DNA of 64,000 nucleotides from Candidatus Spyradenecus sp. (GCA_045634445.1 JAZRAG010000075.1:7782-71781); one strand, 5' to 3'; positions 23,999 through 55,427 are shown, numbered from the stretch's first letter. Numbers and translations: made by a program. Notes: generated by a model from the letters alone, not told the origin.

Positions 23999-26557
23999 TC
24001 ACTCTTCCTGTATTGTGCAAGGAGCGGTGACAGAATAGGTCTTGCCATTGGCCTGCACGCTTACGGTAGTGGGTTGATTTGCCTCAAGTGACCACATGAC
24101 GACGCGTCCTTCGCGCCATTGCAGTGAGACGCGAATCCCATCGTGTGCACGCACACCATGGAGGGAGCCGCCCTTTGCCCATGCAGTAGGGAGCGCTGGC
24201 AATAATTCAATCATTCCCGAGCGCGACTGCACAATCTGCTCCAACATCGCGGCGGCGATGCCATAATTGCCATCTATTTGCAAGGGGATGCGGTGCGAGG
24301 CAAAGCCGTTGTCTAAGACATTGTGTTGCAACAGTCCTTGTATCATAGCATGGGATTCCTCTCCTCGATGGAGGCGTGCCCAGAGTGCCGCTCGCCACGC
24401 CCAAGCCCACGAACGGCGACTGTCGCCTGTGGTTTTGCGTAATCTCAAACTGCGTTCGGCGGCAGTAGCGAGTGTAGGCGTTGTGCTCGGTGAGAGGAGT
24501 GTGCCAGGATAGAGTGCAAAGAGATGTGACGTGTGACGATGGTCGGTCTCAGGGTTGCGGTCAATGAGCCACTCCATGAGATTGCCCCGCTGTCCAATCT
24601 GAGGCGGCACTAATCGCGCCGCGGCTTCGCTAATCTCGGTAAGGAGGGGTGAGGTATGCCCCGATTGATGTGCTCCGGTGAGGGTCGCTTGAAAGAGTTC
24701 GGTGACGATTTGCTGATCATGGGCGACGCCATCTTCTTCGCGCGGTCCGTGTTCGGGTGACCATCCTTTAGGGACGACCAAGGCGCCCGCAGGCAGGGCG
24801 GCGAGTTCTGGATACGCACGCGGATCGACCGCATGACCATTGGAGCAAAACCCCTCGCCGCCAGGGCCGAGCGCCTTGAGCCGTTGAAGCCAGAAGGCAG
24901 AGAGTTCGGTCAAGAGCGGAAGCGCTTCATCCCAACGGGTGGGAGAGGGTGCTGCAAAGGCGGCATGGTCGCGGAAGTGTAAGGCGTACCAGGCTGAAGC
25001 GGGCAGATTCATCTGCCAACCGCCCGCGCCAAAGGGGTTGTGCGATGTATAGACAAGCCATCCAGAGGAGGTGGGGACCTTTTCGCCACGGGCAATGAAG
25101 TACTCGGTAGTGGCGCGTTGGAAACAAGGACGCATGGCTAAGAGGTAGTCAAGGAGGGCGCGATGACATTCGGGTAGGGCGCCTCGTTCGGCAAGCCAAT
25201 AGACCATCTGCGCGTTGATGTTGCTGTGGTAGTCATTTCCCCAAGGTGCTTCGGGATAGGGATTCCAAATACCTTGAAGACCTGCGGGAAGGCCACCAGG
25301 ACGTGAGGTCGCAATGAGAAGATAACGCCCAAAGGCGAGGAAGAGCGCTTCCAAGGCGGGGTCTCCCTCGGGATGGTCGCGATAAGCGGCCAATCGCTGT
25401 GGGGTCGGGAGATCGCGTTCGGGCGCATCAAGCCGTAGCGCAAGGCGACGATAGAGGGCGCGCGTATCTGCGCGATGACGTTCGCGTAAAGCTTCAAAGG
25501 TGAAATCCGCAAGCGCAGAAAAGCGAGCGGCACAACGTTCGGCTGCAGGTGTACCTCGAAAGCCAAGCGCAGGACTCATCTCGTAATTGGTCTCCACTGC
25601 GGTGAGCAACGTCCATTGCCGCACATCCTTGAGAATGAGCGCTTCTGGGGTTACCTCCACCTGCGCAGCATCGCAATGAACCAAACGACTTTGTGAACGG
25701 CATTGGAGGCCATTGGCAAGGGTCGCATCAAGGATGAGTTCGGAGGGCGACAGGGTGAGTGTGTCACTGGGACGATTCCGTGCGAGGGTAATCGCAACGC
25801 GTGCCAACGGTGCATCAGCGGTGTAACGTAGCGCGATGACGCGGTCAGGATAGGAGCAGAAGGCCTCGGAGTGAATCGTTATCCCATTGCGTATGGCAAT
25901 AGCACGCACCGCAGCAGTGTCAAAATCAAGTTCGCGTCGAAAGCCTTCCTTGTGTACGGGCGCGCCGAAGTCAATCAGTAAATCCGCTACGGGTTGTTGG
26001 CCGCCAAATCCCGAGGCTGAATCAGGCCCATGCGAACCATTGTAGGGCTTATCGCCGAGCGCATCAATGCCAGGATTTGCGCCACCAGACCAGAAAGCGG
26101 CCGAGGAAAGCGTGTAGCGGTCACGTCCCGAACCATGAAAGACCGAAACACCCGTAAACCCATTGCCCAATGGATAAGGTTCACCCTCCCACAAGCGTGC
26201 AGGATTGGTGTAACGTCCTTCGGTTAGCGCGTACGTGCGCTCACAAAGGATGTCTACCCCCTCGCCCATGGCACGATGCTTAGGGTAGGAGGGTGGAGGC
26301 GTAGGACGTACTGGCGCTGGCGCACCGATTCGAACGCCCTCAAAAGCCTCTGAAGTTACCGCTGGCACAAGTTGATGTGGGAAGAGTACCGTATAGGCGG
26401 GGCAATCAGACCAAAAACCCTCAAAAGCGCTGCCAGCGACCAACCGCGCTAACGGTGCAATCACCCCTAAAAGAAGAAAGAATCGTCGCCCATTCATACG
26501 CCTCACATTATAACATATGGGCGTGCCTACCGACGCTGTCAAGCGTTTAGATGTCAA
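23999..26557 (-). CDS. secreted glycoside hydrolase, GH95-like (putative alpha-L-fucosidase)
   Basis: Signal peptide after internal Met (MNGRRFFLLLGVIAPLA); GH95-type motif GNDYHSNINAQMVYW; ~830 aa mature size typical of GH95. Confidence 0.65.
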   Translation of the reverse strand: MTSKRLTASVGTPICYNVRRMNGRRFFLLLGVIAPLARLVAGSAFEGFWSDCPAYTVLFPHQLVPAVTSEAFEGVRIGAPAPVRPTPPPSYPKHRAMGEGVDILCERTYALTEGRYTNPARLWEGEPYPLGNGFTGVSVFHGSGRDRYTLSSAAFWSGGANPGIDALGDKPYNGSHGPDSASGFGGQQPVADLLIDFGAPVHKEGFRRELDFDTAAVRAIAIRNGITIHSEAFCSYPDRVIALRYTADAPLARVAITLARNRPSDTLTLSPSELILDATLANGLQCRSQSRLVHCDAAQVEVTPEALILKDVRQWTLLTAVETNYEMSPALGFRGTPAAERCAARFSALADFTFEALRERHRADTRALYRRLALRLDAPERDLPTPQRLAAYRDHPEGDPALEALFLAFGRYLLIATSRPGGLPAGLQGIWNPYPEAPWGNDYHSNINAQMVYWLAERGALPECHRALLDYLLAMRPCFQRATTEYFIARGEKVPTSSGWLVYTSHNPFGAGGWQMNLPASAWYALHFRDHAAFAAPSPTRWDEALPLLTELSAFWLQRLKALGPGGEGFCSNGHAVDPRAYPELAALPAGALVVPKGWSPEHGPREEDGVAHDQQIVTELFQATLTGAHQSGHTSPLLTEISEAAARLVPPQIGQRGNLMEWLIDRNPETDHRHTSHLFALYPGTLLSPSTTPTLATAAERSLRLRKTTGDSRRSWAWAWRAALWARLHRGEESHAMIQGLLQHNVLDNGFASHRIPLQIDGNYGIAAAMLEQIVQSRSGMIELLPALPTAWAKGGSLHGVRAHDGIRVSLQWREGRVVMWSLEANQPTTVSVQANGKTYSVTAPCTIQEE

Positions 26558-26673
26558 TTGCGCAGTGATGAAATAAAATGCGTGCGGAGTGGGAAGGGCG
26601 TGAAGTAAAATAAGGATGTCCTCGCGGAGGTGTTGAGGATTGGTGTATGTTTAACAACAAAAGGAATGAACAG

Positions 26674-27042
26674 ATGAAGAAGATTTTGCTTTTAGCAATG
26701 ATGGCGATGATGTTCGGCCTTGTAGGGTGCGGTTCATCTGAGACGCCAGAGTCTACGGTGACACAGTGGGTAGATGCAGTGCTTGCAGCGGATTATGAGG
26801 CTGCAAATGCGTTGTGTGATGGCTTTGGAATGTCGCTCGCAACGAATGTCACGATTAATCAAACTAAAGACGGAAGCCCTCGCAAGGAAGAGGTGCGTGC
26901 CTTTTTGACAGGATTAAAGGATTTGCGTTCTAAGGTTGAGGGTGACACTGCGAAGGTCTATTGTCCCGCTCGACCTGACAAGCCTATTTTTGAACTTAAA
27001 AAGGTCGATGGTAAGTGGAAGATCGTTGGCGAGGGTATCTAA
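26674..27042 (+). CDS. small lipoprotein, function unknown
   Basis: MKKILLLAMMAMMFGLVGC lipobox; AAGGA RBS before ATG 26674; followed by hairpin terminator. Confidence 0.55.
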   Translation: MKKILLLAMMAMMFGLVGCGSSETPESTVTQWVDAVLAADYEAANALCDGFGMSLATNVTINQTKDGSPRKEEVRAFLTGLKDLRSKVEGDTAKVYCPARPDKPIFELKKVDGKWKIVGEGI

Positions 27043-27067
27043 GCTAAAGGTTTGTTTTAAATTGTTG

Positions 27068-27113
27068 AAGGCGTCCTTGGGTAGTTCCTAAGGATGCCTT
27101 ATTTATATTTTTT
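27068..27113 (+). terminator. intrinsic terminator (11-bp stem aaggcgtcctt/aaggatgcctt + T-run)
   Basis: Inverted repeat with one G-U position followed by atttatatttttt. Confidence 0.6.
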
Positions 27114-27129
27114 AGTTCTTCAATACTTT

Positions 27130-27405
27130 GTACTCTATTTTTCCGGCCGTAACTTATTCATTTTTAATAACTTATTTTGAATATTTTATGGCCGGCAATT
27201 TTAAGCTTAAAATCAGTACAATTTGTACTATTCATGCAAAATTTAAACAGTACAATTTTTTGGGGGCAAGATATTTTAAGGGAAAATTTCCGCTCGGGAA
27301 GAAATCTTAAATAGTACAATTTTTTGCACGGGACTTTTTAGACCTGTCTAGAAAACTTTAGAAAATAGTACGAAGGACCGAAGAAGTGAAACAATAGGGT
27401 TGTGC
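27130..27405. repeat. non-coding direct repeat copy A (~275 bp; contains AGTACAATTTGTACT palindrome 27215-27229 and a 67-bp internal duplication)
   Basis: Aligns base-for-base with 29118-29327 (e.g. GTAACTTATTCATTT, TTTTATGGC, AAAATCAGTACAAT, TATTCATGCAAAATTTAAACAGTACAATTTT, CTGTCTAGAAAACTTT); the two overlapping ORFs are in different frames. Confidence 0.85.
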
Positions 27406-27423
27406 TATCATCATCGGCGTTTT

Positions 27424-27499
27424 CGGTCTCTAACTCAGTTGGTAGAGCACGACACTTTTAATGTTGGGGTCGCGGGTTCGTTCCCCGCGAGACCGGCCA
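27424..27499 (+). tRNA. tRNA-Lys (anticodon TTT)
   Basis: Cloverleaf: acceptor CGGTCTC/GAGACCG, D arm ACTCAGTTGGTAGAGC, anticodon loop CTTTTAA, T arm GCGGGTTCGTTCCCCGC, encoded CCA. Confidence 0.92.
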
Positions 27500-27506
27500 T
27501 CTTAAA

Positions 27507-27536
27507 CCTCTCAAACGCACGTTTGAGAGGTTTTTT
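27507..27536 (+). terminator. intrinsic terminator after tRNA-Lys (cctctcaaac/gtttgagagg + TTTTTT)
   Basis: Perfect 10-bp stem, 4-nt loop, 6 T. Confidence 0.8.
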
Positions 27537-27544
27537 GTTGCCCT

Positions 27545-27580
27545 AAAATAAAAAAATCACCAGCATTTGCTGGTGATTTT
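27545..27580. terminator. bidirectional hairpin atcaccagc/gctggtgat flanked by A-run and T-run
   Basis: 9-bp perfect stem; serves minus-strand gene 27635-28054. Confidence 0.65.
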
Positions 27581-27634
27581 CAATACATTAAATTTGACTA
27601 AAATAATGTATATGGTAAACTAGACGTTATCCCG

Positions 27635-28054
27635 TTAATCGGGAATCGCTGCATAGATTAGTAAAAATAGAAGGCCTAGAACGAAGCCAATTGAGCCTGT
27701 GATAATCCCAGACATCCCCTTTCCGCTTTTAACTTCAGCACATCCACATCCAATGCCTCCTGCGGAAAGAATCATTCCAAACCATGCAGTCCACGATAAC
27801 ACTAAGCCAAGAATACCAAGAACAAGTGCCAAAGTAGCTAAAATACTCGAGTTTTGGCTTCCTTCAAACTCTTGTCGAGGTACAACTAGGGGTGTTGTAT
27901 TGCCCGCTCCAAAAGTATTATAAATCTGAATTGGAGCATTTTGTTGTGAACGAGCTCGATGAAGCTCATTACCACACGCCATACAGAATTTATTCCCAGT
28001 TGATTGCTGCTTTCCACAGTGAGCGCAAAACATTTGTTCGTCAGTCATATCCAC
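27635..28054 (-). CDS. zinc-ribbon membrane protein (DUF4190-like: N-terminal CxxCG...CxxCG ribbon + two Gly-rich TM helices)
   Basis: FCAHCGKQQSTGNKFCMACG then TM hairpin ILATLALVLGILGLVLS / GIITGSIGFVLGLLFLLIY; lower GC than surroundings. Confidence 0.6.
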   Translation of the reverse strand: MDMTDEQMFCAHCGKQQSTGNKFCMACGNELHRARSQQNAPIQIYNTFGAGNTTPLVVPRQEFEGSQNSSILATLALVLGILGLVLSWTAWFGMILSAGGIGCGCAEVKSGKGMSGIITGSIGFVLGLLFLLIYAAIPD

Positions 28055-28729
28055 TTAATCTCTCCATTTAGCGTTAAATTCTTCATGCGACATCTGCCCA
28101 GAGGCGGCATCCACCGCATCTGTGACAACTGCTTGAATAATTATCCCCCAAAGAGCAATGGAAATCACCCACAAGAGGAACGATGTTACGGCAGGACCAT
28201 AATTTTTATTTGTGAGTTTTGCTCGTCTAAACAAATACCAATAAGGGAAAAGACACGACCGAATTCCGATTTCAGCCACTTCTTTTCTATACCCTGCCTT
28301 TTCTAATACTGCTTCATCTTTAAGCGTCAAAATGATTAATACAATTCCCGCACAAATGAAAGCTGCACCCCTCGACGAACTGATGATGCCCACCACATAC
28401 CAAACTATAATCGGCACAATCGCCAGTAACCATGCCCACTTATCCGTTAAGGGAAGCCGCTCTTTCGACTGTTGCGAGGTAGAACTTTTGAAGGCTTCGT
28501 TTTTAACTTTTACGCGCTTGCCAGACGGCAGCGTCACAATTTTATAGGGAGATTCCTGCGAAACACTTTCTTTTTGCAGTGTTTTAGTCTCAGCCACAAG
28601 CGACTCGGTTGTTGAATTATCCAAATGTGTCGGCACGCTCGGTTCAACTAACGACTCATGACTTTTTCCACATTTTGGGCAAAATCGAACTTGAGCTTGA
28701 AGTTCATTTCCACAGTTTGTACAAAACAT
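28055..28729 (-). CDS. zinc-ribbon membrane protein, unknown function
   Basis: MFCTNCGNEL...FCPKCG ribbon, then 3-4 TM helices; abuts the preceding gene with no gap. Confidence 0.55.
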   Translation of the reverse strand: MFCTNCGNELQAQVRFCPKCGKSHESLVEPSVPTHLDNSTTESLVAETKTLQKESVSQESPYKIVTLPSGKRVKVKNEAFKSSTSQQSKERLPLTDKWAWLLAIVPIIVWYVVGIISSSRGAAFICAGIVLIILTLKDEAVLEKAGYRKEVAEIGIRSCLFPYWYLFRRAKLTNKNYGPAVTSFLLWVISIALWGIIIQAVVTDAVDAASGQMSHEEFNAKWRD

Positions 28730-29117
28730 ACCATTTCCTTTCTTTTACTAGCAGTTTTCTTACTAAGCGAAAGGAACTCGTTTTATTTTACTGAGATAAA
28801 ATAAAGCGTGTTCTTCGCCCAATCATCTTCAGTAGAGGCCTACCACAGCCCGAGTGACGACAAGTGAACAGAGAACACGCTAGGAAATGAATCCTAACGC
28901 GCCTCCGCATTACAACTCGTTCACTCAGAGAAAAGTGGTAGTTTCTACTGAACAAATTGTTATGCGTTAACGCATCTTTTAGTACGTCTGAGAGGTGGCA
29001 AGAGGACGCATCACGTCATCGCCCCAATCAAACTATGTGATGGTAGTATAGACCTTTTTAGGATTTAATTCAATAAGAAATTATTGCCCATCACAAAGTA
29101 TTAATTCTTCATTATTC

Positions 29118-29327
29118 CGTACTATATTTGCCGAGTCGTAACTTATTCATTTACAATAACTTATCTTGAATATTTTATGGCAGGTAATTTTAGGCTTAAA
29201 ATCAGTACAATCAGTACTATTCATGCAAAATTTAAACAGTACAATTTTAGGCGGGGACTTTTTGGCCCTGTCTAGAAAACTTTGGAAAATAGTACGGAGG
29301 GCTGAAGAAATGAAACAAATGGGTTTG
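29118..29327. repeat. non-coding direct repeat copy B (~210 bp; AGTACAATCAGTACT palindrome 29203-29217)
   Basis: See copy A; same orientation, ~1.7 kb downstream, no tRNA after it. Confidence 0.85.
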
Positions 29328-29394
29328 CAAATGATTGACGGATTGGGGGCTATAAAGCGTTAAAAACAATGTGAAAAGAGATTACTTTTAAGGG

Positions 29395-29462
29395 GTTTTT
29401 GAAAACAAGCCTTTTTGCCTTTCAAAACAACCCTTTTTGATCTTGAAAAGAGGTTGTTTTGG
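29395..29462. repeat. copy of dispersed intergenic palindromic repeat family
   Basis: GAAAACAAGCCTTTTTG...CAAAACAACCCTTTTTGATCTTGAAAAGAGGTTGTTTTG imperfect palindrome. Confidence 0.7.
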
Positions 29463-29568
29463 GAGTCAATTTCAGCCTTTTCTAAAAACCGCTTAAAATC
29501 AAGCATTTAATGGCGCAGCGTTGAATGGATGCGCTCATGGTTGATGATGGGTGTAAAAGAGGGTTATG

Positions 29569-30489
29569 TTATGCGTCAAAGAGCCAGGTGGAGAGGTAGC
29601 GGTCGCCGCCGTCGGGGATGATGACGATGATGCGTTTGCCGGCGTAGGCTTCGTTGCGGGAGAGGTCGCGGGCTACTGAGAGGGCGGCGCCTGCTGAGAT
29701 GCCGACGAGTAAGCCATCGGTCTTGGCGATGGTACGCGCAGCTTCGCCAGCGGCTTCTGCGCTAACGGCGATGGCGCGTGTAATAAGGGCGGTGTCTAAG
29801 TTCTTGGGAATGAAGCCTGCGCCGATGCCTTGGAGTTTATGGGGGCCAGGGGTGCCACCACTGATAACGGGGGAGGTGTCTGGCTCTACAGCGATAACTT
29901 CGAGATTGGGATTCTTGGACTTAAGCACAGTCGCAATGCCCGAAAGGGTGCCACCAGTGCCAACGCCTGCGACTAAGACATCGACTTGGCCATCGGTGTC
30001 GCGCAGGAGCTCGTAGGCAGTCTGTTCGCGGTGGGCGGCGGGATTGGCTGGGTTTTCAAATTGTTGGGGAATCCAACTGCCTGGGTTGGCCGCTTGTAGG
30101 GCTTGGGCTTCTGCGATGGCGCCTGTCATGCCGCGTTCGCCTGGGGTGAGGACGAGTTCTGCACCATAGGCGGCAAGGAGCTTGCGGCGTTCGGCGCTCA
30201 TGGTTTCGGGCATGGTGAGGATGAGGCGATAGCCTTTAACGGCGGCGGCAAGGGCGAGGCCGATGCCTGTATTACCGCTAGTGGGTTCAATGATGAGGCC
30301 GCCAGGCGCGAGGAGTCCATCGCGTTCGGCGGCTTCAATCATGGCGAGGGCAACGCGGTCTTTGATGCTGCCACCGGGATTAAAGTATTCGACCTTGGCG
30401 AGGAGTTCTGCGTGGCCATCGTTGAATCGATTGAGGCGCACGAGAGGGGTGTTGCGGGCGGTCTCAAGGATGGTGTTGTAGATGGGCAT
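29569..30489 (-). CDS. cysK: cysteine synthase A (O-acetylserine sulfhydrylase)
   Basis: PLP-lysine region GGSIKDR, TSGNTG motif, GTGGT loop. Confidence 0.92.
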   Translation of the reverse strand: MPIYNTILETARNTPLVRLNRFNDGHAELLAKVEYFNPGGSIKDRVALAMIEAAERDGLLAPGGLIIEPTSGNTGIGLALAAAVKGYRLILTMPETMSAERRKLLAAYGAELVLTPGERGMTGAIAEAQALQAANPGSWIPQQFENPANPAAHREQTAYELLRDTDGQVDVLVAGVGTGGTLSGIATVLKSKNPNLEVIAVEPDTSPVISGGTPGPHKLQGIGAGFIPKNLDTALITRAIAVSAEAAGEAARTIAKTDGLLVGISAGAALSVARDLSRNEAYAGKRIIVIIPDGGDRYLSTWLFDA

Positions 30490-46551: not shown

Positions 46552-46580
46552 TTGACGGATGGCGAAAATAAGAATATACT
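46552..46580 (+). promoter_or_regulatory. candidate sigma70 promoter of the secretin/PilM operon (TTGACG-N17-TATACT)
   Basis: Consensus-like hexamers ~55 nt upstream of ATG 46633; GGAG RBS. Confidence 0.45.
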
Positions 46581-46632: not shown

Positions 46633-47457
46633 ATGAAGTCATGGATGATGGTTTTGTTAGCAGCACTTTGCGCTGGTACTGTAATGGCACAGAGCCGGAA
46701 TGGTAAGCAGAAGCAAGGCAAGTCAAAAAATAATGAGGCTGGCCAGTTCATTTCAATTAAGGAAATCTCTTCGGTGGGCGGTGAAAGCGATTACGCTGTG
46801 GAAGCTCCTACCACGGATGATAACTGGAAGAAGGTGAAGATCAACCACGTGGATTCCTACAAGAAGGAAGGCGCGAAGGGTTGGCACTTCTTTGAAGTTG
46901 CTTACGAAGTGGATAAGGTGGGCATTGATCCTGAGAAGAAGAAAACATTGCCGCTCTTTGTGTTGCCCGAAGTGGAAATTACCTACGCGCTCCTTTATGA
47001 TATGACCGAATCGAAGCACACCTCTTCGGTGAAATCGCAGGCGAACAAGGCTGGCGGTGCGATTGGTTGGGATAAGCCTGATCAGACGAATATTTTGTTC
47101 TCTGAAACAGTGGTTTACTCTCAAGTCACTCCTGGTCGTGTGCACTACGCAGCAGTGTGCGTCCCGCCGAATGCCGTTGTGCTTTACGGGAAACCCATCG
47201 TCTTCTCCGTGCAGATTAAGGTTGATGGAGTGCAGCAGGGCGAAATCGAAACGCAGTTCTTGGGCGGCAAGAAGATTGAAGGTAAGGAAATTACTTCCTT
47301 GTTAGTCGGCGCCAAGAAGGAAAAGATTGCTTGGTGGGAAACGATTCAGACAAAGTCTAAGACCGTGCAGAAGGTGGACAATGTGTTGCGTGACCGTTCG
47401 CAGACGCCCTTCGCATTGGTTGGCGATATGTACTATGACCAAGTGAAGGCTAAGTAA
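46633..47457 (+). CDS. secreted beta-rich protein, first gene of the pili-like cluster (positional analogue of Amuc_1102)
   Basis: Sec signal peptide MKSWMMVLLAALCAGTVMAQS; no TM thereafter. Confidence 0.6.
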   Translation: MKSWMMVLLAALCAGTVMAQSRNGKQKQGKSKNNEAGQFISIKEISSVGGESDYAVEAPTTDDNWKKVKINHVDSYKKEGAKGWHFFEVAYEVDKVGIDPEKKKTLPLFVLPEVEITYALLYDMTESKHTSSVKSQANKAGGAIGWDKPDQTNILFSETVVYSQVTPGRVHYAAVCVPPNAVVLYGKPIVFSVQIKVDGVQQGEIETQFLGGKKIEGKEITSLLVGAKKEKIAWWETIQTKSKTVQKVDNVLRDRSQTPFALVGDMYYDQVKAK

Positions 47458-47493: not shown

Positions 47494-49179
47494 ATGGAAC
47501 GTATTTTAACACTTAATATCGGCGCGACGCGTCTTGCGCTTGCCGAGTTTGAGGTCAGGGCCGGTCGCGGCCCCGGCCTCTTGCGCTATGCTTTTGGCGA
47601 CTTGCCAGATGGTAGCACGGACAATCCAACCGCTTTTGCAATTGAAGTGGAGCAAGTCCTTCGTGGCATGATGGTGATGTCGGGCATTCGCCCCGGCCGC
47701 ATCCATGTGGCACTCTCTGGACAGATGGCATTCCCGCGCTTCATTAAGGTGCTTGCAGACAGTCCTGAAAAGATGGATGAACAAATCCGTTTCGAGCAGG
47801 AGCAGGCTGCACCCTTCCCCTTGACCGAAGCTATCTTCTCACACGCATTGGTCGGTGAGCCCGATGTCGGTGAACAGCATGTGATGATCATCGCTTCTCG
47901 TGAAGCGCTTGTTTCTTCCGTGACGCGTGCACTGTTGAATATGGGCTGCGAACCCGATGTGGTAGATGTTGCTCCGATTGCGCTCTACAACGCTGTGCGC
48001 TTTAACTATCCTGAAATGGATGGTTGCACCCTTGTTGTGGATATTGGTGCACGCTGCACAAACTTGGTCTTTGTGGAGCAGGATCGCATCTTCTATCGTT
48101 CGATTCCTGTCGCGGGCAATACGATTACTGCAGAAATCGCCAAGACCTTCGGTATCACCCCTGAAGAAGCTGAAGCCTTCAAGTGCGAACAGGGTATTGT
48201 GGCACAAGGTGGCGCATTTGCAGTAGATGATCCCGATGTGGACCGTCTCTCCAAGGTGATTCGTAATGTCATGACGCGTTTGAACGCAGAAGTGGCACGT
48301 TCAATCTCCTTCTATCGTAGCCAGCAGGGCGGTAGCGCACCCTCGCAGATGTTGCTCACAGGTGCCTCCTCGCAGTTGCCTTACATGCAGAACTTCTTTG
48401 AAGAAAAACTGCAGATTGCGGTTGACTTCTTGAACCCCTTCCAGACTGTGGCATTCCCCAAGCACGTGGATGCAGAACAGTTTGGCCATGACGCCTTCTC
48501 CTTGCCCGTATTGGTGGGCTTGGCCTTGCGTCGCGGCTTGACCTGCCCAGTGGAAATCAACTTGGTTTCCCAGGAAATCGTAAATCGCAAGATTTTCCGT
48601 CGTCGTTTGCCCTTCCTCGGCCTCGCAGCAGTGGGTATGGTCGCGACATTGGGCATTTGGTGGCTCTTTGTGAACAACCTCAAGAACTCTTACGAAACGC
48701 ATCAAGAAAACTTGGCATCTCGTATTAGTGACTATCAGGACCAAAAGGATCGTTACGATCGCGTAGATAAGAAGGCTAAGACTGCAGAAGCTCGTGCCGC
48801 CGCTTATCGTGCGTTGATGAAGCGCCGTGGTCAGTGGTTGGACATGATGGTGGCTATTGATGACGCCGTGCCCAATGGTCTCTGGGTGACAAGCATGAAG
48901 GCTCGTCGTCAAGACAACGTCTTACAGGGCGTGGACCTCACCGTTTCTGCTTGGAAGGATCTTGAGCCGCGTTTGGTAGAAAAGGGTAAAACCATCGCAG
49001 AAACCATTGCTAGCCGTCTTGCAACACAAGAAGTCTTCGTGGATGACGCAAAGGAAATCACAATCAGCAAAATCAATCAGAGCGTTGATTGGATGACCTC
49101 CTTTGACCTCACCGCTAAGCTTAAAGGTGTGGAAGAAGCAGCAGCTAAGACGAACAACAAGCGTCGCACCCGGAGGTAA
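47494..49179 (+). CDS. pilM: type IV pilus assembly protein PilM (actin-like ATPase fold) fused to a PilN-like TM + coiled-coil C-terminal region
   Basis: PilM pattern LNIGATRLALAE...VVDIGARCTNLVFVE...LTGASSQLP; TM FLGLAAVGMVATLGIWWLFVNNL at ~aa 385 followed by charged helical segment. Confidence 0.75.
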   Translation: MERILTLNIGATRLALAEFEVRAGRGPGLLRYAFGDLPDGSTDNPTAFAIEVEQVLRGMMVMSGIRPGRIHVALSGQMAFPRFIKVLADSPEKMDEQIRFEQEQAAPFPLTEAIFSHALVGEPDVGEQHVMIIASREALVSSVTRALLNMGCEPDVVDVAPIALYNAVRFNYPEMDGCTLVVDIGARCTNLVFVEQDRIFYRSIPVAGNTITAEIAKTFGITPEEAEAFKCEQGIVAQGGAFAVDDPDVDRLSKVIRNVMTRLNAEVARSISFYRSQQGGSAPSQMLLTGASSQLPYMQNFFEEKLQIAVDFLNPFQTVAFPKHVDAEQFGHDAFSLPVLVGLALRRGLTCPVEINLVSQEIVNRKIFRRRLPFLGLAAVGMVATLGIWWLFVNNLKNSYETHQENLASRISDYQDQKDRYDRVDKKAKTAEARAAAYRALMKRRGQWLDMMVAIDDAVPNGLWVTSMKARRQDNVLQGVDLTVSAWKDLEPRLVEKGKTIAETIASRLATQEVFVDDAKEITISKINQSVDWMTSFDLTAKLKGVEEAAAKTNNKRRTRR

Positions 49180-49186
49180 GTAATTT

Positions 49187-50287
49187 ATGGATCCTAAACA
49201 AAAACTCATCTTCGGAATTGTAGCAGGCGCTTGCACTGCTGCAATCATCGCGCTTGCAGCGTTGCTCTTTGGGCAAATCGGAGCGAAGAACGAAGCAAAA
49301 GAAGCGCGCGATAATGCCGCATCTGAAATTCGCGGCTACTACTCTGAAGCCATCTACCCTTCGAAGGCCAATCGTGATATCCGTGAACAGGATACGAAGA
49401 CCTACACTGAAGTGGCAGAAGCCGCACGAGCTTTACTCGCAAAGCCTTTGGAATATCCCAAGGGAGAATCCCCCTCGCAATTCGTGACGCGCGTGGCTGA
49501 CACCATTCACGCATTGGATGCGCGCAAGAATGCTTCCCGAGTGGAAATCTTTGATGGCATTGCCAAAAACAAGAATGCTACGCCCGCAGAGCAGGGGATG
49601 GATTACTCCTTCGGCCGCTATGTGCAGCAGGGTGAATTGCCTAAGGATACCGATGTGCCGCGTTTGGCTCATCAGTTCGCAGTGATTGAACACGTCTGCG
49701 ACATCCTTTTGGATGCAGGTGCATTGGACATCACCAAGGTCACACGTGAAATGTTCGACACCGCAGCAAAGCCTGTGCAAGAAGATAAGAATGCACGTCG
49801 CACGACGCGTCGCTCCAAGGCTAAGGAAGAACCTGTTGCAACCACAGGTGTGCAGCTCCCTGATGAACTCGCTAAGGATGGCGTCACCGCAGAGGCGTTC
49901 ACCATAACCTTCCGTGCGCAGTATGCAACCATCGCGAAAGTAATGAATACCTTGGCCAAGGATTCCCTCTTTGTCGTGGTAACGGATGTCTCCTTTAATA
50001 ATCCTATGGACTTGCGTACGCGTGTTGCCGACATGGTGAAGCGTCGTGAATCTGCTCGCGCGACCGCTGCACGTCGTAATCGCAATCGTGCCGCAGAAGA
50101 AAATGCAGAACCCGTTAAGGAAGTCGCACTCTTTGAAACTGCAGCACCTGCAGAGCGCTTGGTTACCGACCCCGAAAACGCGATGCCGATGGAAGTCTCC
50201 ATTTCGTTTGAAGTTTATTCGGTGCCTCCCGCTGAAGAGCCTGAAGCCGAAACCGCCGAAACCGATTCGGCCAAAACTGCAGAATAA
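49187..50287 (+). CDS. bitopic membrane protein, Amuc_1100-like / PilO-like
   Basis: N-terminal TM LIFGIVAGACTAAIIALAALLF; segment TFRAQYATIAKVMNTLAKDSLFVVVTDVSFNN resembles (from memory) Amuc_1100 AFQGDRESVLKAMNAITGMQDYLFTVNSIRIRN. Confidence 0.55.
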   Translation: MDPKQKLIFGIVAGACTAAIIALAALLFGQIGAKNEAKEARDNAASEIRGYYSEAIYPSKANRDIREQDTKTYTEVAEAARALLAKPLEYPKGESPSQFVTRVADTIHALDARKNASRVEIFDGIAKNKNATPAEQGMDYSFGRYVQQGELPKDTDVPRLAHQFAVIEHVCDILLDAGALDITKVTREMFDTAAKPVQEDKNARRTTRRSKAKEEPVATTGVQLPDELAKDGVTAEAFTITFRAQYATIAKVMNTLAKDSLFVVVTDVSFNNPMDLRTRVADMVKRRESARATAARRNRNRAAEENAEPVKEVALFETAAPAERLVTDPENAMPMEVSISFEVYSVPPAEEPEAETAETDSAKTAE

Positions 50288-50305: not shown

Positions 50306-51445
50306 ATGGCAAACCAACTTCCTCCATTTTTAAAGCACTACGATCGCCTCGCCGCGGTCTTAGTCTTGGTGGCATTGTTGATCTCCCTCGCCTTCCTCGT
50401 GCTGAGGGGTGTTAGCCTCCAGCAAGAAGAGCGCGAATACGATGCAGACCTTGAAGCAGGTCAGCCCTCAACCTCTCAAGTGAAGCCTGCTGATAACGCA
50501 GCAGACCTCGCTTTGATTGCTGTGGTGGCAAATCCGCCCGCTGAAAAGTTGCTCGCACTTCAGGACAATCCTGAACTTGCAAACATGGGTACGCCTGAAC
50601 GCCGCTTGCTCTGCGTGAAGTGCACCAAGCCCATCGTTTGGGGTGCAGAAAAGTGCACCTTCTGCGCAGCCGTTCAGCCTAAGGAAGAAAAGATTGACCT
50701 CGCAGCGGTTGACTCCGATGGTGACGGCATTCCTGATATTGAAGAATTGAAGCTTAAGCTCAATCCGCAGGACGGCAATGACGTTGACTTGGATAATGAT
50801 GCCGACGGCTTCACGAATATTGAAGAATATTTGGCAAAGACCGATATGAACGATGCTGCAAGCCACCCTGGCTATGAAGGTCGTTTTGCATTGAAGTCAA
50901 TTGAAGGCACGAAGTTGCAAATTCGCGCAATCGATAAGATGCAGCTCCCCTCCACGAAGGATGCAGACGGAAAGAGTGTTTCTCACTACGCAGTCACCTT
51001 CGTTTCTGTGAATGCAGATGGTGTGATGGGTACCAATCCTGTTCGCGCTAAGGATGGCGAAGAAATTATGTCTAAGGCAGGCACCAGTACTGGTTATCGC
51101 TTTGTTCGCTACAACGAGCTTCCTAAGAAGAAGATTGAAGTTGGCGAACACAAGCAACAGCGCTTTGTTGACGTTTCGGAAGTTGAACTTGTGCGTGTGG
51201 CTGACAATAAGAAAATTGTCACCATTATGTATGACAAAAACAATCCCGAATGGCCTGGCGATCCGCTACTTGAACAGCGCGCAACTTTGGAATTTGACAT
51301 CCCTGGCGTGAAAAACGTGGTTGTTGCTCCTGGTGGTAAATTCACCGTAAAGGGCGAAAAATACACGGTTTTGAGCGTTGATGCCGAGAAAAAAGTCGTA
51401 ACCATTCAGAAAAATGCGACTGGCGCGAAATTTGACTTGAAATAA
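50306..51445 (+). CDS. bitopic membrane protein with zinc-ribbon and DxDxDG calcium-binding motifs (positional analogue of Amuc_1099; PilP-like role possible)
   Basis: TM LAAVLVLVALLISLAFLVL; CVKC...CTFC; DSDGDGIPDIEE and DLDNDADGFTNIEEY; beta-rich C-terminus. Confidence 0.55.
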   Translation: MANQLPPFLKHYDRLAAVLVLVALLISLAFLVLRGVSLQQEEREYDADLEAGQPSTSQVKPADNAADLALIAVVANPPAEKLLALQDNPELANMGTPERRLLCVKCTKPIVWGAEKCTFCAAVQPKEEKIDLAAVDSDGDGIPDIEELKLKLNPQDGNDVDLDNDADGFTNIEEYLAKTDMNDAASHPGYEGRFALKSIEGTKLQIRAIDKMQLPSTKDADGKSVSHYAVTFVSVNADGVMGTNPVRAKDGEEIMSKAGTSTGYRFVRYNELPKKKIEVGEHKQQRFVDVSEVELVRVADNKKIVTIMYDKNNPEWPGDPLLEQRATLEFDIPGVKNVVVAPGGKFTVKGEKYTVLSVDAEKKVVTIQKNATGAKFDLK

Positions 51446-51519: not shown

Positions 51520-54500
51520 ATGACACAATTTGTACGCTTTGCCATGATCGGCGCATTAGCCGCTGGGGCATCAGTATGCGCCATTGCGCAAGACGATGAC
51601 AGTCTTGACGCCCTCTTGGGGGACCTCGTAGAGGATGTCGCGATTGAAGAAGACGCTGTAGCTGTCGACGAAATCGCTGACGAACCTGCTGAAGAAGTCG
51701 CCGAAGTGCCTGCCGAAGAAGCAGTCGAAGAGGTCGCTGAAGAAGTTGCTGCCGTCGACGAAGATCCTATCGCAGATGAACCTGCAGAAGACGTCGCTGA
51801 AGTCCCCGCAGAAGAAGCGGTGGAAGAAGTTGCTGAAGTTGCAGATGAACCTGCTGAAGAGGTCGTGGAAGAAGTCGCCGAAGCAGACGAACCCGCAGCC
51901 GAAGTCGAAGAAGTGATCGCCGAAGCAGACGAGCCCGCAGAAGAAGTTGCGGAAGAAGTCGCTGAAGTTGAAGCTGACGCAGACGAAGCAGTCGAAGTGG
52001 TTGAAGTGGCAGACGAGCCCGCAGAAGAAGCTGTGGAAGAAGTCGCTGTCGCAGACATGGAAACTGAAATCAAAGAAATCGCGGAAGCTCCTGCAGACGA
52101 ACCCGCCGAAGGTTTGCTCGCTGGCGTCAACACCTCCGTTGAACCGATTGAAGAACTTACCGAAGAAGAACGCAAGTATAATGATCTTGCGCTCTTGATG
52201 GAACTCAAGAATCGTGGCTTGGATAACCATGCATATGCTTGCTTGGCTAAGGCTCGTGAATTGATGACCACGCCTCCGCAGCCTGGCAAGGCCTTCAATC
52301 AGTACGCTGATGCTATTAAGATGTATAAGGACGCTCAGGTTTACTTCCGTCAGCGCGAAGAAAACCTCCCTCTCCGCAATGAGTGTGACATCGGCATCCG
52401 CGAAGCTGAATATCGTCAGGCAAAGGTTCGCTTTGAAGAAGGTAACTTCGTTGAAGCTCTTGAAATGGCTCAGAATGTCCAGCTCAGCGGCCATCCTCAG
52501 GGCGCAGCTTTGATTGAAATCATTCAGGACGAAATGAATAAGCCGGTGGAAGTTCGCCCGAACCCCATCCTTCCTGAATACGCTAAGGAAGAATATCAGC
52601 GCAATCGTTTGGCCATTCAGGAACGTATGCGCCGTGCAACCGTTTACTTCCAGCTCGCTAAGTATCGTGAAGCAAACGATCAGTTGGAACTCATTCTCCG
52701 TGATGACCCCAACAATGAAGAAGCAATTAGCTTGCGTGCTCGCGTGAATCGTCGTCATGCAGATCGCAATCGTCAGTTGAAGTATTCCACACACGATGAA
52801 ATGATTAGCCAGGTGGAAGCTAACTGGACTCCCCTTGGTGCTCTCGCCCGCAACTCTGAAGAACTCTACGCTCCTGTAGAATCTAAGGGTGCCACCACGA
52901 AGGTGAACAAGGAGGGCGAAAAGGAAGAAGCAGTCGTGATGGCTAAGTTGCAGTACATCCGCTTGCCTGAATTCTCTATCCGTCCGCCGAGCACGCTCGC
53001 TGACGCAGTTGCGCTCTTCGCTGAACTCTCTAAGGATTACGACAAGCCCGAACTTCCTCCGGAAGAAAAGGGTATCGCTTTCGTGTTGAACATGGGCAAA
53101 AAGCCCGCGGCAGCTGCGGAAGAAACCGAAGATGATCCGTTCGCATCTGAATCGGAATCCTCCTCTGGCCTTCCTCCGATTGCCTCCATCTCCATGCCTT
53201 GGGTGACCCTCAAGGAAGCATTGGACATGGTTTGCGAAGTGACTGGCTCCAAGTACGTGATTAAGGGTAAAATCGTGATGATCGTTCCCGCAACACACGT
53301 TGACGGTATCATGGTCACGCGTTCCTATAACGTGATGGGCGGCTTGGTTGAAAAGCTCAGCCAAGTGAACAGTGAAATGGGTTCTTCTAGCGATGACAGC
53401 GATTGGGGTTCTGACTCCGAAAGTAGCTTCACTGCACCCTCTACCGACGCGGCATCCTTGAAGGCCTTCTTCACTGACCTCGGCGTGCCCTTTGATGGTG
53501 GTGCTCGAATCGCCTACTTGCCGACCATCGGTAAGCTCCGTGTTACAAATACTCCTGAAAACTTGGCAATCCTCGAAGGCGTCCTTGAAGACCTCAACGT
53601 GACTCCGTCTCAGATTGAAGTTGAAGCTCGCTTCGTTGAAGTAAGCCAGGAAGACTTGAACTCCCTCGGTTTTGAATGGGGCTTGAATGGTGACGTTGTT
53701 GGCACCATCGGTTCTGGTATCGACTGGGCTGACTCTGTGATTTCTGGCAATGCTAACCGTGGTCTCGCCGCAGGCGGTACTGGTGCAAATGGCAATGTCT
53801 TCCGCCCTGGACGCGGTGGCACGGGTGATGCAAACGTAGCTGTTCATGGTGGCTCTCTTAATAATGGTATGCGCTTCCTTGGCGATGGTAATGCATATGC
53901 AAATCGTATTAACCTCGCAGGTAGCACCATTGCTCCCGATGATACCTTTGCCAGCTTCTCCGCTGTCTTTGGTCGCGTGGACATGACGATGGTCCTCCAC
54001 ATGTTGGCTCAGCGCTCCGATACGGATATGCTCTCCAGCCCCAAGGTGCTCGCACGCCCTGGCCAGGAAGCACTCATCCGCGTGGTGACCGAACACATTT
54101 ATCCTACCGAATTCGATATTACCGAACTCGAAGAAGCTGAACAGAACTGGAACGGTAATAACGGTGGTAGCAGCCTTGCTGGAGGCTTGACCGGTGGCCT
54201 CATCGGTGGTAATAATGTGCAGATGAATGCACCGCCTGTGAAGTTCGCTGTTGAACCTCAGTCCTTCGAAAAGACGGACGTGGGTGTCTCCTTGCAGGTT
54301 GTCCCTGAACTTTCTCAGGAAGGTCAGATGATCAACATGTTGGTCAACCCCAAGGTTGTTGAATATCTCGGTGACTTTGACTACGGTATGAAGGTGCCTT
54401 ACATCCAGTACGGCATGACCGCAGGTGCAGTTTCTAGCGCTCAGGTTGAATACTACAACGTAGAAATGCCTCAGCCGAAGTTCCATGTTCGTGAAATCAA

Positions 54501-54786
54501 TACCTATATCTCTGTCTACAACGGCTCTACGGTTGTGATGGGTGGCTTGATTACCGAAACGCGTAAGTCCTTCGAAGATAAGGTTCCGTTCTTGGGTGAC
54601 CTTCCCTTCATTGGCTTCCTCTTCCGCTCTAAGGGCGAATTCAGCGAAAAGCGCAACCTCCTCGTCTTCCTTACCGCTCGTTTGGTTGACCCTGCAGGCC
54701 GCCCGTTGAAGACCGCTACCGATGGTCGTACAGGCAATGCTGCAATGGATACCGCAGCAGAAACCATGGACTCCATCGCAGAGTAA
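51520..54786 (+). CDS. pilQ: secretin (PilQ/GspD family), 1088 aa, with signal peptide, ~170-aa acidic repeat region, TPR-like helical region and Gly/Asn-rich insert
   Basis: C-terminal secretin domain (VPFLGDLPFIGFLFRSKGEFSEKRNLLVFLTARLVDPAGRP); signal MTQFVRFAMIGALAAGASVCAIAQ. Confidence 0.85.
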   Translation: MTQFVRFAMIGALAAGASVCAIAQDDDSLDALLGDLVEDVAIEEDAVAVDEIADEPAEEVAEVPAEEAVEEVAEEVAAVDEDPIADEPAEDVAEVPAEEAVEEVAEVADEPAEEVVEEVAEADEPAAEVEEVIAEADEPAEEVAEEVAEVEADADEAVEVVEVADEPAEEAVEEVAVADMETEIKEIAEAPADEPAEGLLAGVNTSVEPIEELTEEERKYNDLALLMELKNRGLDNHAYACLAKARELMTTPPQPGKAFNQYADAIKMYKDAQVYFRQREENLPLRNECDIGIREAEYRQAKVRFEEGNFVEALEMAQNVQLSGHPQGAALIEIIQDEMNKPVEVRPNPILPEYAKEEYQRNRLAIQERMRRATVYFQLAKYREANDQLELILRDDPNNEEAISLRARVNRRHADRNRQLKYSTHDEMISQVEANWTPLGALARNSEELYAPVESKGATTKVNKEGEKEEAVVMAKLQYIRLPEFSIRPPSTLADAVALFAELSKDYDKPELPPEEKGIAFVLNMGKKPAAAAEETEDDPFASESESSSGLPPIASISMPWVTLKEALDMVCEVTGSKYVIKGKIVMIVPATHVDGIMVTRSYNVMGGLVEKLSQVNSEMGSSSDDSDWGSDSESSFTAPSTDAASLKAFFTDLGVPFDGGARIAYLPTIGKLRVTNTPENLAILEGVLEDLNVTPSQIEVEARFVEVSQEDLNSLGFEWGLNGDVVGTIGSGIDWADSVISGNANRGLAAGGTGANGNVFRPGRGGTGDANVAVHGGSLNNGMRFLGDGNAYANRINLAGSTIAPDDTFASFSAVFGRVDMTMVLHMLAQRSDTDMLSSPKVLARPGQEALIRVVTEHIYPTEFDITELEEAEQNWNGNNGGSSLAGGLTGGLIGGNNVQMNAPPVKFAVEPQSFEKTDVGVSLQVVPELSQEGQMINMLVNPKVVEYLGDFDYGMKVPYIQYGMTAGAVSSAQVEYYNVEMPQPKFHVREINTYISVYNGSTVVMGGLITETRKSFEDKVPFLGDLPFIGFLFRSKGEFSEKRNLLVFLTARLVDPAGRPLKTATDGRTGNAAMDTAAETMDSIAE
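51640..52110 (+). repeat. degenerate in-frame tandem repeats encoding (A/V)EE(V/A)AE..DEPAEE units
   Basis: Repeated gaagaagtcgc / gacgaacctgc blocks; about 10 units of 14-18 codons. Confidence 0.7.
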
Positions 54787-54805
54787 GGTTGAGAAAACTA
54801 AAAGA

Positions 54806-54838
54806 AAACGCGGCATGAAAGTGCCGCGTTTCTTTTTA
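54806..54838 (+). terminator. intrinsic terminator of the secretin operon (aacgcggca/tgccgcgtt + TCTTTTTATT)
   Basis: 9-bp GC-rich stem, 6-nt loop, T-run. Confidence 0.8.
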
Positions 54839-55308
54839 TTAAAGACTTGGTTTGATATATCACACATTTAACTAGCAATAAAGCAGAGGATTGGAAACTG
54901 TTCGAATAGATTGAGATATGATAATTTTAAGAGAGACACAATCGTAGAGAAGGGCATAAAGTGTGATCTTTAATTATAGCCAGAGTTAAAAACATCTTTT
55001 AGAAGTGGGGTATATCGGAGTGGTTTGTGATAGAGAAGAGGGTATAAGAATAAAAGATTTCTAAGGTGTAGGTAACGCGGATAAATGTAGAAATCTTGGG
55101 TGTGAATCGTTACTGAATGTGGTAGTTAACACTGAAAGTTTGGCAACATTCTCGTAGTGATGTAATCTTTAAGGGATAACGAATATTGTGATGTCATTAA
55201 AGGAAATTTAAGCAGGGTTCTGTTAGGTGTTATTTATAAAAGAGGGGCACTCTTTAATTTTGCTATAAATAAAGCGTTAAATAAATTAAAGAAAGTTTAA
55301 AAAAGTAC

Positions 55309-55350: not shown

Positions 55351-55427
55351 CGGGCTGTTAGCTCAGTTGGTTAGAGCACTACCTTCACACGGTAGGGGTC
55401 GCTGGTTCGAGTCCAGCACAGCCCACC
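55351..55427 (+). tRNA. tRNA-Val (anticodon CAC)
   Basis: Acceptor GGGCTGT/ACAGCCC, D arm AGCTCAGTTGGTTAGAGC, anticodon loop TTCACAC, T arm CTGGTTCGAGTCCAG, encoded CCA. Confidence 0.9.

Follow-up and report, generated by a model that had tools for sequence, protein, structure and literature searches.

Most of the research and development on Amuc_1100 of Akkermansia muciniphila treats it as an "outer-membrane pili-like" protein that acts on the host. Two alpha-beta-beta motifs give it a likeness to proteins of type IV pili and of type II secretion (PMC13119276), its similarity to PilO/PilN has been described (bioRxiv 10.64898/2025.12.30.696933), and the gene cluster to which it belongs is the mucin-utilization locus MUL2 (Amuc_1099-1102), reported to be important for mucin acquisition (bioRxiv 10.64898/2025.12.30.696933; PMC13174399). 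Across gut, marine and freshwater Akkermansiaceae the synteny of MUL2 is kept while sequence identity is low, and the survey of the locus took in Verrucomicrobiales, Chthoniobacterales and Methylacidiphilales (PMC13174399). The present analysis concerns a 64-kb window (the whole stretch of DNA that was analysed, Candidatus Spyradenecus sp., GCA_045634445.1 JAZRAG010000075.1:7782-71781; all coordinates are counted within it) and particularly its gene at 49187-50287 (+), whose 366-residue bitopic product, PilO-like and of the Amuc_1100 family, is called the target below. A preliminary description made from the sequence had called it a highly diverged homolog of the Amuc_1100 host-interaction protein.

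According to our analysis the target is a real, very distant homolog of Amuc_1100, and we consider it probable, at roughly three chances in four, that it forms a structural part, of the PilO type, of a MUL2-like secretin machine. Such a distant ortholog helps to separate the ancestral function of the machine from the host effects specific for Akkermansia.

Homology of the target to Amuc_1100

The open reading frame (ORF) runs exactly as it had been described, in position, strand, length and ATG start; the start codon lies 7 nt past the stop of the preceding gene and is preceded, 10 nt upstream, by a GGAGG Shine-Dalgarno sequence. Because the same length and the same N-terminus, MDPKQK, recur in 42 protein clusters of 39-100% identity, we regard it as a genuine gene. 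The reference for Amuc_1100 was a sequence identical, over residues 31-317, to the chains of the PDB entries 6KNY, 6LAD and 6LAF, all of them named 'Amuc_1100'.

Simple searches do not see the relation. BLASTP of the target against the verified Amuc_1100 gave a best E of 0.46, on an unrelated short segment, and no meaningful alignment, and no Amuc_1100 chain in the PDB was matched either by phmmer with the target or by hmmsearch with a profile of 41 sequences of its clade; this narrow profile, which gives Amuc_1100 only 8.9 bits, misses it because it is too specific for the clade. Comparison of the clade profile with the single Amuc_1100 sequence in hhalign reached a probability of only 5.8%, and an alignment on the Akkermansia side was required. 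Taken by themselves, the results of BLASTP, phmmer and the narrow profile would suit the view that the resemblance comes from chance or composition (a shared transmembrane helix and helical low complexity) and that the two proteins are unrelated.

The sensitive comparisons tell otherwise. The NCBIfam model NF038287, 'Amuc_1100 family pilus-like protein', matches the target with E 5.7e-19, residues 12-307 corresponding to positions 13-288 of the 326 in the model, and the precomputed annotation of the exact protein carries Pfam PF28028, 'Amuc_1100' (E <= 1e-5), as do all 43 relatives of the target and all Akkermansia Amuc_1100 proteins; a scan with a local Pfam copy, apparently older than PF28028, gave no such match. 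The target thus probably belongs to the Amuc_1100 family at superfamily level. An exhaustive search with the clade profile collected 1,485 representative clusters (50% identity) at E <= 1e-3, and a broad profile made from the target and 141 of them finds the verified Amuc_1100 with 61.5 bits and E 8e-12, as computed for a library of 1.84 billion proteins (1.84e9). The alignment is collinear from the transmembrane helix to the last strand, residues 10-186 and 214-335 of the target corresponding to 13-192 and 189-315 of Amuc_1100. Once the Akkermansia clade was also represented by an alignment, the profile comparison that had been proposed as a check bore the homology out (hhalign probability 71%, E 3.6e-5, 212 columns). 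The pairwise check gave a divided answer, failing in BLASTP and succeeding only with profiles or with the full Smith-Waterman procedure, where the collinear alignment of residues 10-355 with 12-317 scored 84 (shuffles 40.5 +/- 5.8, 0 of 500 reaching it); with the transmembrane helix removed the score was still 76, to be compared with 40 +/- 6.2 and a maximum of 66 among the shuffles, again with 0 of 500 reaching it. A bridging sequence, P0234, which sits in the same kind of gene cassette, is matched by both clade-specific profiles (E 1.9e-36 and 1.2e-4).

Structure comparison, the third of the proposed checks, points in the same direction. The AlphaFold2 model of the target, built on an alignment of 41 sequences (predicted local distance difference test score, pLDDT, 79.6), was compared with the PDB by Foldseek, and the best ten matches were all Amuc_1100 crystal structures (6KNY, 6LAD and 6LAF), with E 2e-6 to 3e-5, target-normalised TM scores of 0.69-0.79 and 11-12% identity. 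The specificity of this structural match, the broad profile, the Smith-Waterman score obtained without the transmembrane helix and the identical position in the conserved five-gene cassette that Akkermansia also has refute a chance resemblance, to which we leave practically no probability. The idea of a highly diverged Amuc_1100 homolog is thus sustained by NF038287, PF28028, the broad profile, hhalign, Foldseek and cassette position together.

The cassette and a probable PilO-type role

Five closely spaced genes run in one direction here, the target being the third, and their products match the NCBIfam families Amuc_1102, 1101, 1100, 1099 and 1098 in this order. Gene 1 (46633-47457 (+), 274 residues) is Amuc_1102-like (MUL2A-like), with a weak match to the NCBIfam model Amuc_1102_rel (E 0.0012); BLASTP links it to a protein of the distant locus L022 (E 8e-8) and the latter to Akkermansia Amuc_1102 (E 3e-10), and the same slot holds PF28178 genes in L022, in the Akkermansia contig L020 and in two further loci, L024 and L025. 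Gene 2 (47494-49179 (+), 561 residues) encodes a PilM protein fused to a PilN-like module and is the counterpart of Amuc_1101 (PilM_2 E 4e-35; Amuc_1101_fam E 5e-124). Gene 4 (50306-51445 (+), 379 residues) belongs to the Amuc_1099 family (NCBIfam Amuc_1099_fam, 67 bits at a cutoff of 50), and gene 5 (51520-54786 (+), 1088 residues) is the secretin, a counterpart of Amuc_1098 (Pfam Secretin E 8e-29; Amuc_1098_fam E 5e-119) that also matches GspD (E 4e-40) and PilQ (E 8e-30) and is 27% identical to Akkermansia Amuc_1098 over 864 residues.

In the Akkermansia contig the five genes stand in the same arrangement and encode proteins of 238, 612, 317, 337 and 906 residues, and the same order was found in 18 related genomes of animal or human gut origin (loci L002-L019), labelled Kiritimatiellae, Lentisphaeraceae or Ca. 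Spyradenecus, as well as in the distant loci L022 and L025 and at the loci of bridging sequences. The slot within the cassette is identical in the lineage of the target, in Akkermansia and in distant loci, which makes the target the positional ortholog of Amuc_1100.

The topology of the protein is that of PilO: a single hydrophobic helix, a coiled coil and a ferredoxin-like core with two alpha-beta-beta repeats, the orientation in the membrane being presumed. The one transmembrane segment that had been predicted is there as the single stretch with a Kyte-Doolittle 19-mer hydropathy above 1.6 (residues ~7-30, 49205-49276 (+)); it lies in a continuous helix of the model (residues 3-53), aligns with the N-terminal hydrophobic segment of Amuc_1100 in both hhalign and hidden Markov model (HMM) alignments, and is presumably an inner-membrane anchor, which by analogy with PilO would be uncleaved and have its N-terminus inside. 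A lipoprotein formed at Cys16 (AGAC) was considered and rejected: the hydrophobic run extends 14 residues beyond this cysteine, which is not conserved among the relatives. The model has helices up to residue ~125 and then an alpha-beta domain (helices 154-177 and 246-258; strands 181-187, 234-244, 262-271 and 335-345), and both this secondary structure and the Foldseek superposition place the PilO/PilN-type core at residues ~154-345 (49646-50221 (+)). Two Arg/Lys-rich insertions of low confidence interrupt the core at about 193-225 and 276-302, with basic 15-mers beginning at 199 and 285. The last 21 residues (346-366, 50222-50284 (+)) form the acidic Glu/Pro/Ala-rich tail that had been noticed earlier, containing 6 E, 5 A, 3 P and 3 T; with a pLDDT below 50 it is predicted to be disordered, and it varies among orthologs and is unconserved in the family alignment.

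After the Amuc_1100 structures, the next PDB neighbours of the model are PilO of P. aeruginosa (2RJZ), chain O of the M. xanthus machine (3JC8) and 5UVR, with E 0.014-0.27. The gene order is also that expected for PilO, with the PilM-PilN-like fusion directly upstream and, two genes downstream, the secretin. In the gene 2 protein the C-terminal third begins with an 'EINLVS' motif, followed by a transmembrane helix, a helix (coiled coil) of about 100 residues and a small alpha-beta domain, and its profile finds PilN of M. xanthus (3JC8 chain N, E 6.5e-4) as the best PDB match; because this third is PilN-like, the cassette reads PilM-PilN (fused), PilO-like, Amuc_1099-like, secretin, in parallel to pilMNOPQ. 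In Foldseek the model of the PilN-like module, which was made from a shallow alignment of 8 sequences, weakly resembles the PilO core. The core of PilO shares its fold with PilN, and the two proteins pair in type IVa pilus machines.

It would be logical to suggest, on this basis, that the N-terminal helix would hold the target in the inner membrane and that, on the periplasmic side, the coiled coil and two alpha-beta-beta motifs of the target would pair with the PilN-like part of the gene 2 protein, this pair making an alignment platform which may join the cytoplasmic PilM to the Amuc_1099-like protein and to the secretin of the outer membrane. By analogy with the genetics of Akkermansia, such a machine may help the cell to attach to glycans of the host, or to other complex glycans, or to take them up. 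The gut origin and two glycosidase genes in the window make this role plausible here, and it is the least secure step of the proposal. The two genes encode a GH89 alpha-N-acetylglucosaminidase (NAGLU; 1993-4476 (+)) and a GH95 alpha-fucosidase-type enzyme (23999-26557 (-)), of families listed among the mucin-degrading glycosidases (PMC12418764), and are consistent with a gut lifestyle of host-glycan foraging.

Several points weigh against the PilO-type assignment. Within the 64-kb window there is no pilin, PilB/PilT ATPase, PilC or prepilin peptidase gene. The structural match to PilO is weak (2RJZ, TM score 0.51, E 0.014), and no Pfam or NCBIfam PilO/PilN model matches the target at E <= 1. 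With 68.7 bits it stays far below the equivalog cutoff of NF038287 (180 bits) and so does not count as an NCBIfam equivalog. We infer, rather than observe, both the PilN-PilO pairing and the glycan function. Finally, Amuc_1100 of Akkermansia has been located at the cell surface or in outer-membrane fractions (PMC5332112), which fits a PilO-like role at the inner membrane poorly.

The secretin also raises the question whether the cassette could rather be an exporter of folded proteins similar to type II secretion, for glycosidases for example, with the target in the role of GspM or of the periplasmic part of GspL. GspM and GspL belong to the same fold family as PilO and PilN. Together with this shared fold, the higher score of the secretin with GspD (137.8 bits) than with PilQ (104.3 bits), the similarity of Amuc_1100 to type II secretion proteins (PMC13119276) and the lack of pilin or ATPase genes nearby speak for such an exporter, which we nevertheless hold to be improbable: the cytoplasmic partner is of PilM type (TIGR01175 pilM, 140.5 bits, above the cutoff of 133), the weak GspL match that was obtained falls on the Amuc_1099-like protein and not on the target, the PDB neighbours that follow Amuc_1100 are PilO chains and not GspM, and the window has no GspE, GspF or pseudopilin genes. 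The GspM and GspL models of Pfam and NCBIfam gave no match to the target.

Conserved residues, host signalling and divergence

An HMM-guided alignment of the target with Amuc_1100 comprises 292 columns, 16.8% of them identical, and 30 columns are both conserved in the family and common to the two proteins. The preliminary description had expected low identity outside one C-terminal block; over the whole protein it is 11-17%, depending on the comparison, and invisible to BLASTP. The shared motif residues, those of the target being named first, are P58-S59 (P60-S61), S95-P96..F99 (T99-P100..F103), F142..Y145 (F134..Y137), R187 (R177) and N254 (N221), and P152, L160 and the final strand of the target are conserved as well.

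A C-terminal block, FTITFRAQ...SFNNP, had been proposed as the conserved core. It covers residues 238-273 (49898-50005 (+)), the strand-helix-strand of the second alpha-beta-beta motif, and every method used (hhalign, HMM and Smith-Waterman) aligns it where it had been suspected to align, with residues 207-233 of Amuc_1100, IAFQGDRESVLKAMNAITGMQDYLFTV; the family-conserved residues inside it are F242, M253, N254, L256, V265 and V268. Taken alone the block is marginally above chance (Smith-Waterman score 36 versus 23.6 +/- 3.7 for shuffles, 14 of 2000 reaching it), and its alignment to Amuc_1100 was not reported by BLASTP. In conservation P58-S59, S95-P96..F99, F142..Y145 and R187 equal or surpass it. 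Conserved positions, mostly core-forming, occur all along the periplasmic part, and the block is one conserved element among several. The family keeps a PilO-type scaffold and a few scattered motif residues, with no obvious surface patch.

This pattern bears directly on the opinion that the target is a surface-exposed host-signalling protein, an agonist of TLR2 and modulator of the gut barrier, which has been selected for that activity. The homology and the shared fold are true, the closest relatives of the target come from metagenome-assembled genomes (MAGs) of animal or human gut, and Amuc_1100 was immunolocalised outside Akkermansia cells and activates TLR2 (PMC5332112; PMC13055324). Against it stands, besides the low identity, the nature of the shared residues, mostly buried hydrophobics and a few motif residues, because of which no surface epitope can be assumed to be conserved. 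The family comprises at least 1,485 clusters at 50% identity, and MUL2 synteny is also found in marine and freshwater Akkermansiaceae (PMC13174399), so the ancestral role would not be host signalling. Fold and gene order are moreover those of the inner-membrane PilO, and together they point to a periplasmic PilO-type machine part and not to a surface ectodomain. We therefore consider host signalling by the target quite unlikely; the 'host-interaction' label describes the protein of Akkermansia, and from sequences that are only 11-17% identical its activity cannot be transferred to the target.

Of the five genes, it is always the Amuc_1100-like one that has diverged most among the Kiritimatiellae-type genomes; L006 gives an example, with identities of 57, 69, 50, 56 and 67% in cassette order. 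BLASTP of the window cassette against Akkermansia finds only PilM (31%) and the secretin (27%), beyond an alignment of calcium-binding motifs in gene 4. The target matches the protein of the distant locus L022 well (28% over 281 residues, E 3e-24), whereas Akkermansia Amuc_1100 gives no BLASTP match to it, which suggests that Amuc_1100 may be an outlier of its own family; in this comparison there are three lineages only, their representatives chosen with the profile of the target itself, and we offer the idea as a lead.

Taking this further, we may tentatively suggest, as a reading clearly less probable than its opposite, that the Amuc_1098-1102/MUL2 system is no speciality of Akkermansia or Verrucomicrobiales and may be an ancient envelope machine spread across the Planctomycetes-Verrucomicrobia-Chlamydiae (PVC) group, with the PilO-like subunit evolving fastest and Amuc_1100 being an outlier and not the prototype, and that it could support Akkermansia-like capture of host glycans in uncultured gut Kiritimatiellae and Lentisphaeraceae, where GH89 and GH95 enzymes are present too. 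If this were true, these bacteria would constitute a second, overlooked lineage of mucin foragers, with pilus-associated proteins that are potentially host-active.

As to novelty, the kind of protein is known and the extension of the cassette to this lineage is mildly new. GenBank already lists a relative of 66% identity, MBQ9694433.1, under the name 'Amuc_1100 family pilus-like protein [Kiritimatiellae bacterium]', and none of the papers searched names both Amuc_1100 and Kiritimatiell*. Since family models and database annotations exist already, the findings are incremental; what they add is a complete five-gene cassette in gut PVC lineages outside the MUL2 survey cited above.

The surroundings of the cassette and comparison with known systems

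A promoter-like site precedes gene 1 (46552-46580 (+), 10 of 12 positions); it is a match to consensus only, and the region does not hold more such sites in total than shuffled sequences do. A terminator-like hairpin stands 20 nt past the stop of the secretin gene (54806-54831 (+)); its stem of 11 bp includes 6 GC pairs and is followed by a T-rich tail. Downstream of the cassette, L020 and L022 have coaE and rho, while the window has a tRNA (55352-55425) and unrelated genes, because of which the downstream linkage noted in the MUL2 literature (PMC13174399) is not universal.

The secretin has a TPR region and an N-terminus of acidic tandem repeats (51673-52056, DNA periods of 42, 84 and 96 nt), residues 30-230 being 40% Asp/Glu and residues 1-260 carrying a net charge of -77. 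L022 has a similar acidic region, which Akkermansia Amuc_1098 lacks. The protein of gene 2 ends in a basic tail (..RRTRR or RRSRR, 49150-49179) in all Kiritimatiellae-type orthologs (L002-L019), and this tail is absent in Akkermansia and L022. It was considered whether the acidic N-terminus of the secretin pairs electrostatically with the basic insertions and tails found in the PilO-like and PilN-like parts; the idea was rejected as unsupported, because among the three lineages compared L022 has the acidic secretin region and no basic PilM-PilN tail. An antisense ORF of 1098 residues (51571-54867 (-)) covers the whole secretin gene and is slightly longer; its translation is rich in Phe, Cys and His and does not look protein-like, and it is probably a shadow ORF. 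The gene 4 protein has a transmembrane helix, a zinc-ribbon-like CxxC-x10-CxxC motif (residues 102-119), which is found in L022 and absent in Akkermansia Amuc_1099, and a beta-rich C-terminus. Its TSP3-like calcium-binding motifs (DxDxDG..EE) are common to the window, L022 and Akkermansia and are the sole part that BLASTP aligns with Akkermansia.

The rest of the window is ordinary chromosome with uvrB, ftsW, tatAC, yidC, cysS, tmk, gyrA and other such genes. A stretch at ~26000-30000 has a lower GC content (0.445-0.453, about 0.52 elsewhere), a tRNA (27424-27496) and two adjacent ORFs with zinc-ribbon domains (27635-28054 and 28055-28729, minus strand), and may be a small acquired islet. Lineage labels conflict among the sister MAGs, which are given as Kiritimatiellae, Kiritimatiellaeota, Lentisphaeraceae or Ca. 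Spyradenecus, the last of these being filed under Lentisphaerota in the NCBI taxonomy. One locus with a full PVC-type cassette, L012 (CAVDHG010000075.1), a contig of 9.8 kb, was deposited as 'Agathobacter rectalis', a Firmicute, and is most likely a binning contaminant of that assembly.

Set beside the described systems, the target is closest to Amuc_1100 of Akkermansia muciniphila, with which it shares motif residues, the fold seen in 6KNY, 6LAD and 6LAF, and the slot between PilM-like and Amuc_1099-like genes. It differs in being 49 residues longer, with an acidic tail, and in having Arg/Lys-rich insertions (about 199-215 and 283-301) where the Akkermansia protein has an acidic loop and a Pro/Ala-rich linker; its host, an uncultured gut bacterium, belongs to a different PVC lineage. 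With PilO (P. aeruginosa 2RJZ/5UVR; M. xanthus 3JC8 chain O) it has in common the bitopic architecture, the coiled coil, the ferredoxin-like core of two alpha-beta-beta repeats and the position of its gene after a PilN-type module and before a secretin, in an order like pilM-N-O-(P)-Q. Unlike in the type IVa pilus machines, PilM is joined to PilN in one protein, an unrelated-looking member of the Amuc_1099 family stands in for PilP, and the pilin, ATPase and platform genes are unlinked within the 64 kb. The locus as a whole matches MUL2 (Amuc_1099-1102) of Akkermansiaceae and Verrucomicrobiales, having the same gene order and families and the same combination of low identity with kept synteny, and it differs from the lineages of that survey in belonging to a gut lineage labelled Kiritimatiellae or Lentisphaeraceae.

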